From the NCBI RefSeq assembly GCF_003334765.1, contig NZ_QOWT01000002.1: a stretch of DNA of 64,000 nucleotides, one strand, 5' to 3'. Both the position numbers and the translations under genes were made by a program. Below the pieces are notes generated by a model. It did no database searches and was not told the origin of the DNA. It worked only from the letters and a program-made list of their open reading frames with translations. The stretch's first letter is position 1. Each line of letters begins with the position of its first letter. Below, piece by piece: positions 33,857-34,528 of this stretch. The stretch is from Escherichia coli (GTDB taxonomy: Bacteria; Pseudomonadota; Gammaproteobacteria; Enterobacterales; Enterobacteriaceae).

Positions 33857-34528
33857 ATGGTGATTGATGCAATGTTAAGCGTTCAGATGACTCCACAAGC
33901 AAAAGTTAGCTTCGAGGAGCAATGTTTTTTTCATGCTTCAGGTCTTGTTGTTGCCCCAATAAATGTTGGAGCATTCTCCTACTTTGGCGCTAATTGTATG
34001 CTCGGCGGCTTTACGATGGGTAGATTCTGTTCAGTTGCTCCAGGAGTAAAAATTGGCCTTGGCGAGCATGAAACTGGGTATTTTTCTACGCATCCTTTTT
34101 TCTTTGGCTCAAAAAATGGTTTTAAAATCCCTGATGGTATAGGAATGCAACGCGACCTCTCTCAACAGAAGCATGGTATACCAAGAATTGGTCATGACGT
34201 ATGGATAGGTGCAAATGCGGTTATCAGGCGAGGTATAACTATTGGTACTGGCGCTGTTATTGCTGCTGGCGCTATTGTCACCAAAAATGTCGAGCCATAT
34301 TCAATCGTAGGTGGCGTTTCTGCAAAACACCTAGGGTACAGATTTGAGGAATCAATCATCAAAGAGTTACTGGATAGCCAATGGTGGGAATATGATTTAA
34401 GCTCATTTATTGGGATTGATACAAGGACACCGACGACTTTTTTAGAGCAGTTTAATGCTGTAAAAGATAAAAAGAAGGCATCTTATAAGAGATTTACAAT
34501 TCTTCCATCCGGTGAAATTGTTGAATAG
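33857..34528 (+). CDS. hexapeptide-repeat acetyltransferase (candidate lysogenic-conversion gene)
   Basis: 223 aa, left-handed beta-helix repeats ([28 protein letters not shown]); AT-rich. Confidence 0.7.

Follow-up and report, generated by a model that had tools for sequence, protein, structure and literature searches.

A prophage-borne CatB-related acetyltransferase paired with a tailspike gene in Escherichia coli, a candidate modifier of the K107 capsule

Acetyltransferases of phages and capsule loci

NeuO of phage CUS-3 acetylates the polysialic acid of the K1 capsule and raises phage resistance (PMC3046976, PMC13001214). The gene analyzed here comes from a 64,000-nucleotide stretch of E. 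coli DNA (assembly GCF_003334765.1, contig NZ_QOWT01000002.1), hereafter "the window". It shares several features with neuO: both encode a soluble hexapeptide-repeat acetyltransferase, and both occupy the slot between the integrase and tailspike genes in a P22-like prophage integrated at argW, with ant as a neighbor. The hosts of each gene are limited to one group 2 capsule type, whose polymer is made in the cytoplasm (PMC3046976). An earlier note on this DNA, made from the letters alone, regarded the gene as a conversion factor of "unusual type"; this was overstated, since the soluble NeuO fills the same slot, also at argW (PMC3046976). The two systems nevertheless differ in several respects. 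The window protein belongs to another subfamily of left-handed beta-helix (LbH) enzymes (E-value 9e-5 for the NeuO structure 3jqy, versus 1e-20 to 1e-26 for CatB/Vat). neuO possesses heptanucleotide poly-psi repeats that mediate phase variation, whereas the window gene lacks them and has a T7/T6 tract as its only candidate for such an element. neuO is co-directional with its tailspike gene, whereas the window gene is convergent with it. Finally, the CUS-3 tailspike is an endosialidase and the window tailspike is pectate-lyase-like, and the capsules of the hosts differ.

A second group of relevant enzymes is encoded in region 2 of Ribf-Kdo capsule loci. These are soluble Vat/CatB-like acetyltransferases, whose genes lie beside an ORF of >1100 aa for a Kdo transferase combined with a ribofuranosyltransferase-phosphatase (PMC12887879, PMC13171606, bioRxiv 10.64898/2025.12.15.689991). 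Region 2 of E. coli K13 pairs the gene for a "vatD" acetyltransferase with that for the Kdo/ribose polymerase KrkA, and O-acetylation is the sole difference between the antigens K13, K20 and K23 (PMC12887879); the KL112 locus of ST131 also carries a CatB-related gene. Homologs of the window protein at 51–59% identity have this Ribf-Kdo context, and the vatD of K13 is likened to them by its description. Genes of the vatD type are, however, located in cis, within the K locus, whereas the window gene would serve in trans, from a prophage, a K locus that has no such gene.

With CatB, PaXAT and Vat the window protein shares the fold, the loop with the catalytic His and the C-terminal helical WW region, but its gene sits in a capsule/phage receptor module rather than in an integron or a resistance element. 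Membrane enzymes are the usual modifiers of O antigens that are made by the Wzx/Wzy route. The same slot by the integrase is occupied by oac in phage Sf6 and by gtrABC in P22-like and related phages, whose products convert, upon lysogeny, the receptor that the phage itself uses. Oac, a member of the AT3 family, and the Gtr proteins are integral to the membrane and modify the O antigen while it crosses the inner membrane or afterwards, in contrast to the window protein, which is soluble and tied to a capsule of the ABC-transporter type.

The gene, its protein family and its 5' end

From the left end of the prophage onward, the features around the gene are as follows (strand in brackets):

32271..32345 (+): tRNA-Arg (CCT) gene argW, the attachment site and left end of the prophage (ARAGORN); the mlaA-yfdC-argW-intS layout is also found in strain GF4 (L022)
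32471..33664 (+): IntS-type tyrosine integrase (NCBIfam PRK09692, 238 bits; PHROG 1, integrase)
33680..33856 (+): non-coding leader of the acetyltransferase gene; ~33680 is the left limit of the DNA common to prophages with different integrases
33857..34528 (+): XAT-class (CatB/Vat-like) hexapeptide O-acetyltransferase, 223 aa; likely start ATG 33872, catalytic His at residue 71
33925..33931 (+): poly-T tract, T7 in the window and T6 in 3 of 9 copies
34525..34544 (no strand assigned): hairpin with an 8-bp stem and a 4-nt loop followed by a T-run, a weakly supported candidate terminator between the convergent genes
34548..36914 (-): tailspike, 788 aa, the cassette partner (Pfam; PHROGs, tail spike)
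37015..37893 (-): antirepressor Ant, a marker of immI, the region that follows the cassette on its right (PHROG 245, 375 bits; context only)

Much of what the earlier note had read from this region stands, namely a genuine hexapeptide acetyltransferase ORF, a soluble LbH product, an AT-rich segment (41% GC in the acetyltransferase gene, 47% in the integrase gene and in the window as a whole) and a position between the integrase and a convergent tailspike gene of a P22-like phage. The last point is supported by the gene order, by the P22-type Head_binding domain of the tailspike (residues 1–113) and by the neighboring genes for Ant, Arc and ejection proteins. The stop codon of the tailspike gene is 19 nt from the acetyltransferase gene. 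The hairpin between the two is the single site found in the scan, in which 0.9 sites are expected by chance, and the promoter scan upstream of the acetyltransferase gene returned a lone weak match (33834–33861), no better than chance.

The genes upstream identify the E. coli argW locus: mlaA, yfdC and, at the position of yfdF, an ORF of 352 aa. This ORF (28974–30032, (+) strand, 33–37% GC, upstream of mlaA) belongs to the host DNA outside the prophage and has its counterpart in the yfdF position of GF4; we considered it as a candidate type III secretion effector gene and dropped the idea, since it is an ordinary occupant of this position. Inside the prophage, between the Arc/Ant region and the DNA-ejection genes, two small ORFs of 111 and 129 aa (38465–38800 and 38816–39205, both (+), 38–40% GC) encode proteins with signal-peptide-like N-termini and resemble moron genes.

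The earlier note suggested a family assignment by profile search to Mac- or CysE-like enzymes; our analysis identified the CatB/Vat-like XAT class instead. Pfam detects the Hexapep and Hexapep_2 repeats at residues 110–143 (E-values 3e-9 to 5e-9), and the top NCBIfam families are TIGR03308, Vat and CatB with 97–120 bits, against curated cut-offs of 201–350 bits. Thus, the protein falls short of the equivalog of CatB (NF000490: 97.4 bits, cut-off 350) as well as of Vat (NF000311: 99.6 bits, cut-off 300). Among solved structures, the sequence is closest to type B chloramphenicol acetyltransferases and to VatA/VatD (E-values 1e-20 to 3e-26, 30–38% identity), and the AlphaFold2 monomer model (pLDDT 93.9), with short beta strands throughout, has only CatB or Vat among its top Foldseek matches. 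In an alignment of 36 sequences, His71, Ser77, Pro80, Trp176/177 and the S-T-H-P-F loop are invariant or nearly so; the loop with the catalytic His (G-x-x-H ... S-T-x-P-F) and the C-terminal helical WW motif align with those of 6pu9 and VatA. No transmembrane segment was found (the maximal Kyte-Doolittle hydropathy over 19 residues, 1.43, falls within the beta-helix), and the protein has no match to the AT3 domain of Pfam and is not a multi-pass membrane protein of the Oac type. The NeuO structure 3jqy matches residues 112–157 only, i.e. the generic hexapeptide core (E-value 9e-5), and no relatedness to NeuO beyond this core was detected; nor did we find a heptanucleotide or other tandem repeat within or upstream of the gene. 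Judging from these profiles and the model, the acetyltransferase is a soluble LbH enzyme of the XAT structural class, outside the CatB and Vat resistance equivalogs, and by analogy to solved XAT enzymes it is expected to form a homotrimer that uses acetyl-CoA. PGAP names the near-identical copies "CatB-related O-acetyltransferase".

Both the homologs and the PGAP annotations of the near-identical copies place the start five codons downstream of the ORF limit, at ATG 33872, which gives a product of 218 aa. Among nine copies compared, the tract at 33925–33931 is T7 in six and T6 in the remaining three, i.e. in A10 and in both copies of the double lysogen GF4. The T6 form costs 22 N-terminal codons and moves the start to ATG 33922, which is preceded by GAGGAG and opens a 201-aa product beginning approximately where the natural homologs P0005 and P0014 begin. 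The T6 variant may reflect relaxed selection, and the T7/T6 tract could be an expression switch or a sign of decay.

A mobile pair of acetyltransferase and tailspike genes

Orthology to a housekeeping acetyltransferase, raised in the earlier note as a reading that would speak against a phage function, finds no support in the distribution of the gene: of 5426 complete E. coli genomes only 10 carry it, each time within a prophage. The 90% cluster of the protein has 161 members. Every copy is situated at a prophage end, abutting the 3' end of the tailspike gene at a distance of 19–20 nt from its stop codon, and the copies are 99–100% identical across prophages at four attachment sites. These are argW (the window and GF4, L022), torT/torS (L001, L003, L004 and L006, each of which keeps a remnant of the 3' end of the IntS gene), ybhB/bio (L002) and dacD/sbmC (L005). 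For strain NRZ14408, an entire P22-like phage with the cassette, phage_14408_1, was assembled into a record of its own (41,305 bp; L028, NZ_LT599830.1). In blastn comparisons of window positions 33601–33900 with L002 and L028, the alignment begins at query position 80–83. The acetyltransferase gene and the 3' end of the tailspike gene are thus a two-gene cassette that moves between P22-like prophages at at least four attachment sites.

The newer chromosome assembly of NRZ14408 (CP158426) shows no copy of the acetyltransferase gene. The phage may have been excised or lost in culture, which would suggest that it is active. Among the isolated phages of the phage collection, no carrier was found at the level of DNA or of close protein similarity, and the only matches were Vat-like genes of phages of Gram-positive bacteria (Vat on Streptococcus phages).

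The nearest diverged relative with a usable context is P0005, whose acetyltransferase is 65% identical to that of the window. A convergent gene 20 nt past it encodes a product 49% identical to the body of the window tailspike over 663 aa. The acetyltransferase and the tailspike evolve as a unit, because P0005 keeps a homologous partner in the same geometry.

The tailspike consists of a P22-type head-binding domain (aa 1–113), a pectate-lyase-like beta-helix body and a C-terminal S74 chaperone domain (aa 654–718; all according to Pfam). It matches a PHROG annotated for colanic-acid degradation, and its closest counterpart in an isolated phage is the tailspike of phage PSK1 (54% identity), on the receptor of which we found no literature. 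Two tailspike alleles occur among the lysogens; they are ~100% identical in the S74 domain and 46–60% identical over residues 350–600. Their divergence maps to window positions 35100–35900, i.e. to the distal part of the beta-helix, between near-identical N- and C-terminal parts (the alleles were compared across L004, L005 and L006). GF4 possesses both alleles, in P22-like prophages at argW and torT that carry one acetyltransferase copy each. Related tailspike bodies are not confined to prophages with the cassette. A different prophage on the NRZ14408 chromosome encodes such a receptor-binding body as an 860-aa "GH28-related" protein (L023, 6001–8583), next to holin and endolysin genes and without an acetyltransferase gene, and related bodies occur in Br_112_kylling, AR_0085 and EC17CM13. 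At the megablast level, three of these host genomes lack the region 2 genes of the K107 capsule locus described below.

Among the other homologs of the acetyltransferase, P0004, P0008, P0009 and P0014 (52–59% identity) are all located in region 2 of kps-type ABC-transporter capsule loci, beside polymerases of 1171–1210 aa that have a ribofuranosyltransferase-HAD phosphatase part in common with Bcs3 of Haemophilus influenzae type b. The gene immediately upstream of P0017 (L030, 53% identity) encodes a polymerase with 46% identity over 1183 aa to the K107 enzyme discussed below; no kps genes are visible on its contig. P0003 (62% identity), from a P2/Mu-like phage, and P0016 (47–50%, depending on the alignment), from a Pseudomonas prophage, are both found at a prophage end and adjoin tail-fiber genes of unrelated phages. 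In the Pseudomonas putida prophage L015, the acetyltransferase homolog (8001–8693, 47–50%) is downstream of tail genes, and a 645-aa protein of the tail region (4382–6319) has a faint SASA (sialate O-acetylesterase-like) match, so that here an esterase-type receptor-binding protein may be paired with the acetyltransferase.

Some of the capsule-locus homologs also have a tailspike-like neighbor. In the E. coli O15:H12 locus (L017), a convergent gene 16 nt past the acetyltransferase homolog encodes a 609-aa beta-helix protein homologous to the body of the window tailspike (E-value 4e-10), and in L013 the acetyltransferase gene is adjoined by one for a 741-aa pectate-lyase-plus-S74 protein that aligns with the tailspike over 675 aa at 28% identity (E-value 9e-50). 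Tailspike-like beta-helix genes were thus observed beside acetyltransferase homologs inside kps-type loci at L013 3896–6121, L017 9518–11347 and L014 1747–2742. The proteins that they encode could be cognate depolymerases or products of captured phage genes.

The K107 capsule and the proposed function

The kps locus of the window strain itself falls outside the window, and the host capsule was read from lysogen AVS0578 and the surveyed genomes. When searched with a composite query, every lysogen chromosome gave one extra match, attributable to kpsD, a gene present in ~32% of all genomes. The kps locus of AVS0578 (L027) consists of kpsFEDUCS, a two-gene region 2 and then kpsT and kpsM, and contains no gene for a hexapeptide or AT3 acetyltransferase. 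The first gene of region 2 encodes a 329-aa protein and the second a 1169-aa polymerase that matches Bcs3 over residues 424–787 (the ribosyltransferase/HAD part) and is homologous over its full length to the polymerases found beside the acetyltransferase homologs (28% identity over 1126 aa, E-value 3e-117). A region 2 of this type is present in 22 of the 5426 genomes, among them all 10 carriers of the acetyltransferase gene (hypergeometric P-value 1e-25). AVS0578, AH21A060 and NRZ14408 are examples of K107 lysogens, and ST131 strain 2822 has the K107 locus but no acetyltransferase gene. The other 12 records have neither the acetyltransferase nor the window-type tailspike, the one exception being the newer NRZ14408 assembly, which retains only the related tailspike-like gene of another prophage.

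In the kTYPr catalog, K107_10 has 1169 aa with a HAD domain at 450–661, K107_9 has 329 aa with a TPR-like C-terminus, and the K107 reference locus (lineage G2A) has 14,255 bp, as compared to 14,254 bp for the kpsF-kpsM span of AVS0578. We have therefore assigned the lysogen hosts to type K107, by matching protein lengths, domain positions and locus length rather than by sequence; none of the lysogens' assembly accessions is among the kTYPr supplement entries listed. K107_9 has a predicted alpha/beta-hydrolase-like N-terminal part and could itself be a modifying enzyme. Three other host types were considered and rejected: the capsule of the L017 type (E. coli O15:H12), the polymerase of which was found in only 1 of 5426 genomes; K13/K20/K23, as the K107 polymerase is only 25% identical to those of KrkA-like E. 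coli loci; and K18/K22, as region 2 of K107 has no genes for CDP-ribitol synthesis. The KrkA-like E. coli loci used in this comparison (L025 and L026, found via homologs of the L017 polymerase; K13 itself is not among them) carry a WcbI-hexapeptide fusion.

K107 is a newly defined type. The kTYPr paper groups it with the Ribf-Kdo capsules and reports its positive association with invasive disease. The capsule is predicted to contain ribofuranose and probably Kdo. K107 genomes span ST131, wild-bird and river isolates.

Polymerization of group 2 capsules takes place on the cytoplasmic side of the inner membrane, from where KpsMT/KpsED export the polymer (PMC12887879). The presence of a soluble enzyme in the slot can be understood because such a capsule is made in the cytoplasm, within reach of a soluble enzyme that depends on acetyl-CoA, as K1 is for NeuO (PMC3046976). 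The gene lies on a temperate phage beside that for a receptor-binding protein, and its carriers are confined to one capsule type. Lysogenic conversion or receptor masking, as suggested in the earlier note, remains the best reading of these observations, while its likely target shifts from the O antigen or LPS to the group 2 capsule K107. We therefore consider it probable that the enzyme O-acetylates the K107 capsule of the host, that its partner tailspike targets the same capsule, and that lysogeny converts K107 to an acetylated form. The prophage enzyme would act on the capsule polymer while this is still on the cytoplasmic side of the inner membrane, prior to export by KpsMT/KpsED. The prophage would thereby contribute in trans an acetyltransferase for which related capsule loci have a gene in cis. 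The partner tailspike would recognize, and probably depolymerize, the same capsule. The change of K107 from the non-acetylated to the acetylated state would, by analogy to NeuO and K1, alter antigenicity and reduce attack by capsule-specific phages (PMC13001214, PMC9659370), resulting in superinfection exclusion or receptor masking. The substrate that accepts the acetyl group, the position acetylated and the consequences for phage adsorption and immunity are all inferred in this way. Tailspike host range alone could account for the association with K107, because the acetyltransferase gene is physically linked to that of the tailspike; the cis-encoded homologs are hence the only independent argument for a capsule substrate.

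A different acceptor at the cytoplasmic face, such as Und-PP-linked O-antigen units, colanic acid, ECA or the poly-Kdo linker, is the alternative that fares best, albeit we regard it as improbable. It corresponds to the reading of the earlier note in terms of LPS serotype conversion. Distant CatB-related paralogs (35–36% identity) do occur within the Wzx/Wzy O-antigen clusters of O127/O90 and O88, the slot between integrase and tailspike usually holds O-antigen modifiers in P22-like phages, and the colanic-acid PHROG match of the tailspike points the same way. Against this, all carriers share one rare K locus, and the close homologs at 52–59% identity are found in ABC-transporter capsule loci or beside polymerases of such loci and not in O-antigen clusters. 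The spread of lineages among the K107 genomes also argues against one common O antigen, as judged from the lineages rather than from O types.

Slightly less credible still is the possibility that the gene is a hitch-hiking or decaying passenger with no current role, retained through its linkage to the 3' end of the tailspike gene. Its location at a recombination-prone prophage end, the promoter scan and the T6 frameshift in 3 of 9 copies would all agree with such a fate. Yet the ORF is intact and 99–100% conserved over different phage backbones, even though the body of the adjoining tailspike has diverged to 46–60% identity, and the catalytic and structural motifs are all preserved. Moreover, the T6 form retains an in-frame ATG after GAGGAG, close to the start of P0005 and P0014, and the 65% identical relative keeps the same partner gene.

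We find it very hard to believe that the protein is a xenobiotic acetyltransferase shielding the lysogen from chloramphenicol, streptogramin A or another small molecule: CatB and Vat lead both the solved structures and the named NCBIfam families, the loop with the catalytic His is kept and Vat genes occur on Streptococcus phages, but the scores of 97–100 bits are far from the Vat/CatB cut-offs of 300–350, the capsule-locus genes are closer relatives, resistance offers no rationale for the strict tie to a tailspike and to one capsule type, and even the vatD-named gene in region 2 of K13 has been called a candidate capsule acetyltransferase (PMC12887879).

Returning to the capsule as the acceptor, we also entertain a more far-reaching scenario, which is tentative and on the whole rather doubtful. 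According to it, K107 would exist in acetylated and non-acetylated forms determined solely by the cassette; the acetyltransferase and the beta-helix depolymerase would be an ancient pair shuttling between capsule loci and receptor-binding modules of phages; and the two tailspike alleles would discriminate between the acetylated and non-acetylated capsule, thereby allowing double lysogeny of the GF4 type.

Our literature search found no paper on a prophage-borne acetyltransferase for K107 or for any other capsule of the Ribf-Kdo type, and prophages are not mentioned in the kTYPr paper. Phage-encoded O-acetylation of a capsule is already known from NeuO; what the present case adds is a specific gene, located away from the kps locus, as a candidate modifier of the capsule. 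Genetic typing cannot at present separate E. coli K antigens whose only difference is O-acetylation, for example K18 and K22, and the cassette represents a testable candidate for a gene of this kind. If the proposal is true, capsule typing and the choice of vaccine antigens would need to take prophage content into account, and E. coli would have, besides NeuO, a second and mechanistically independent case of capsule acetylation driven by a phage. The pair of enzyme and tailspike would then also provide a tool to study how acetylation gates depolymerase activity and the host range of phages.
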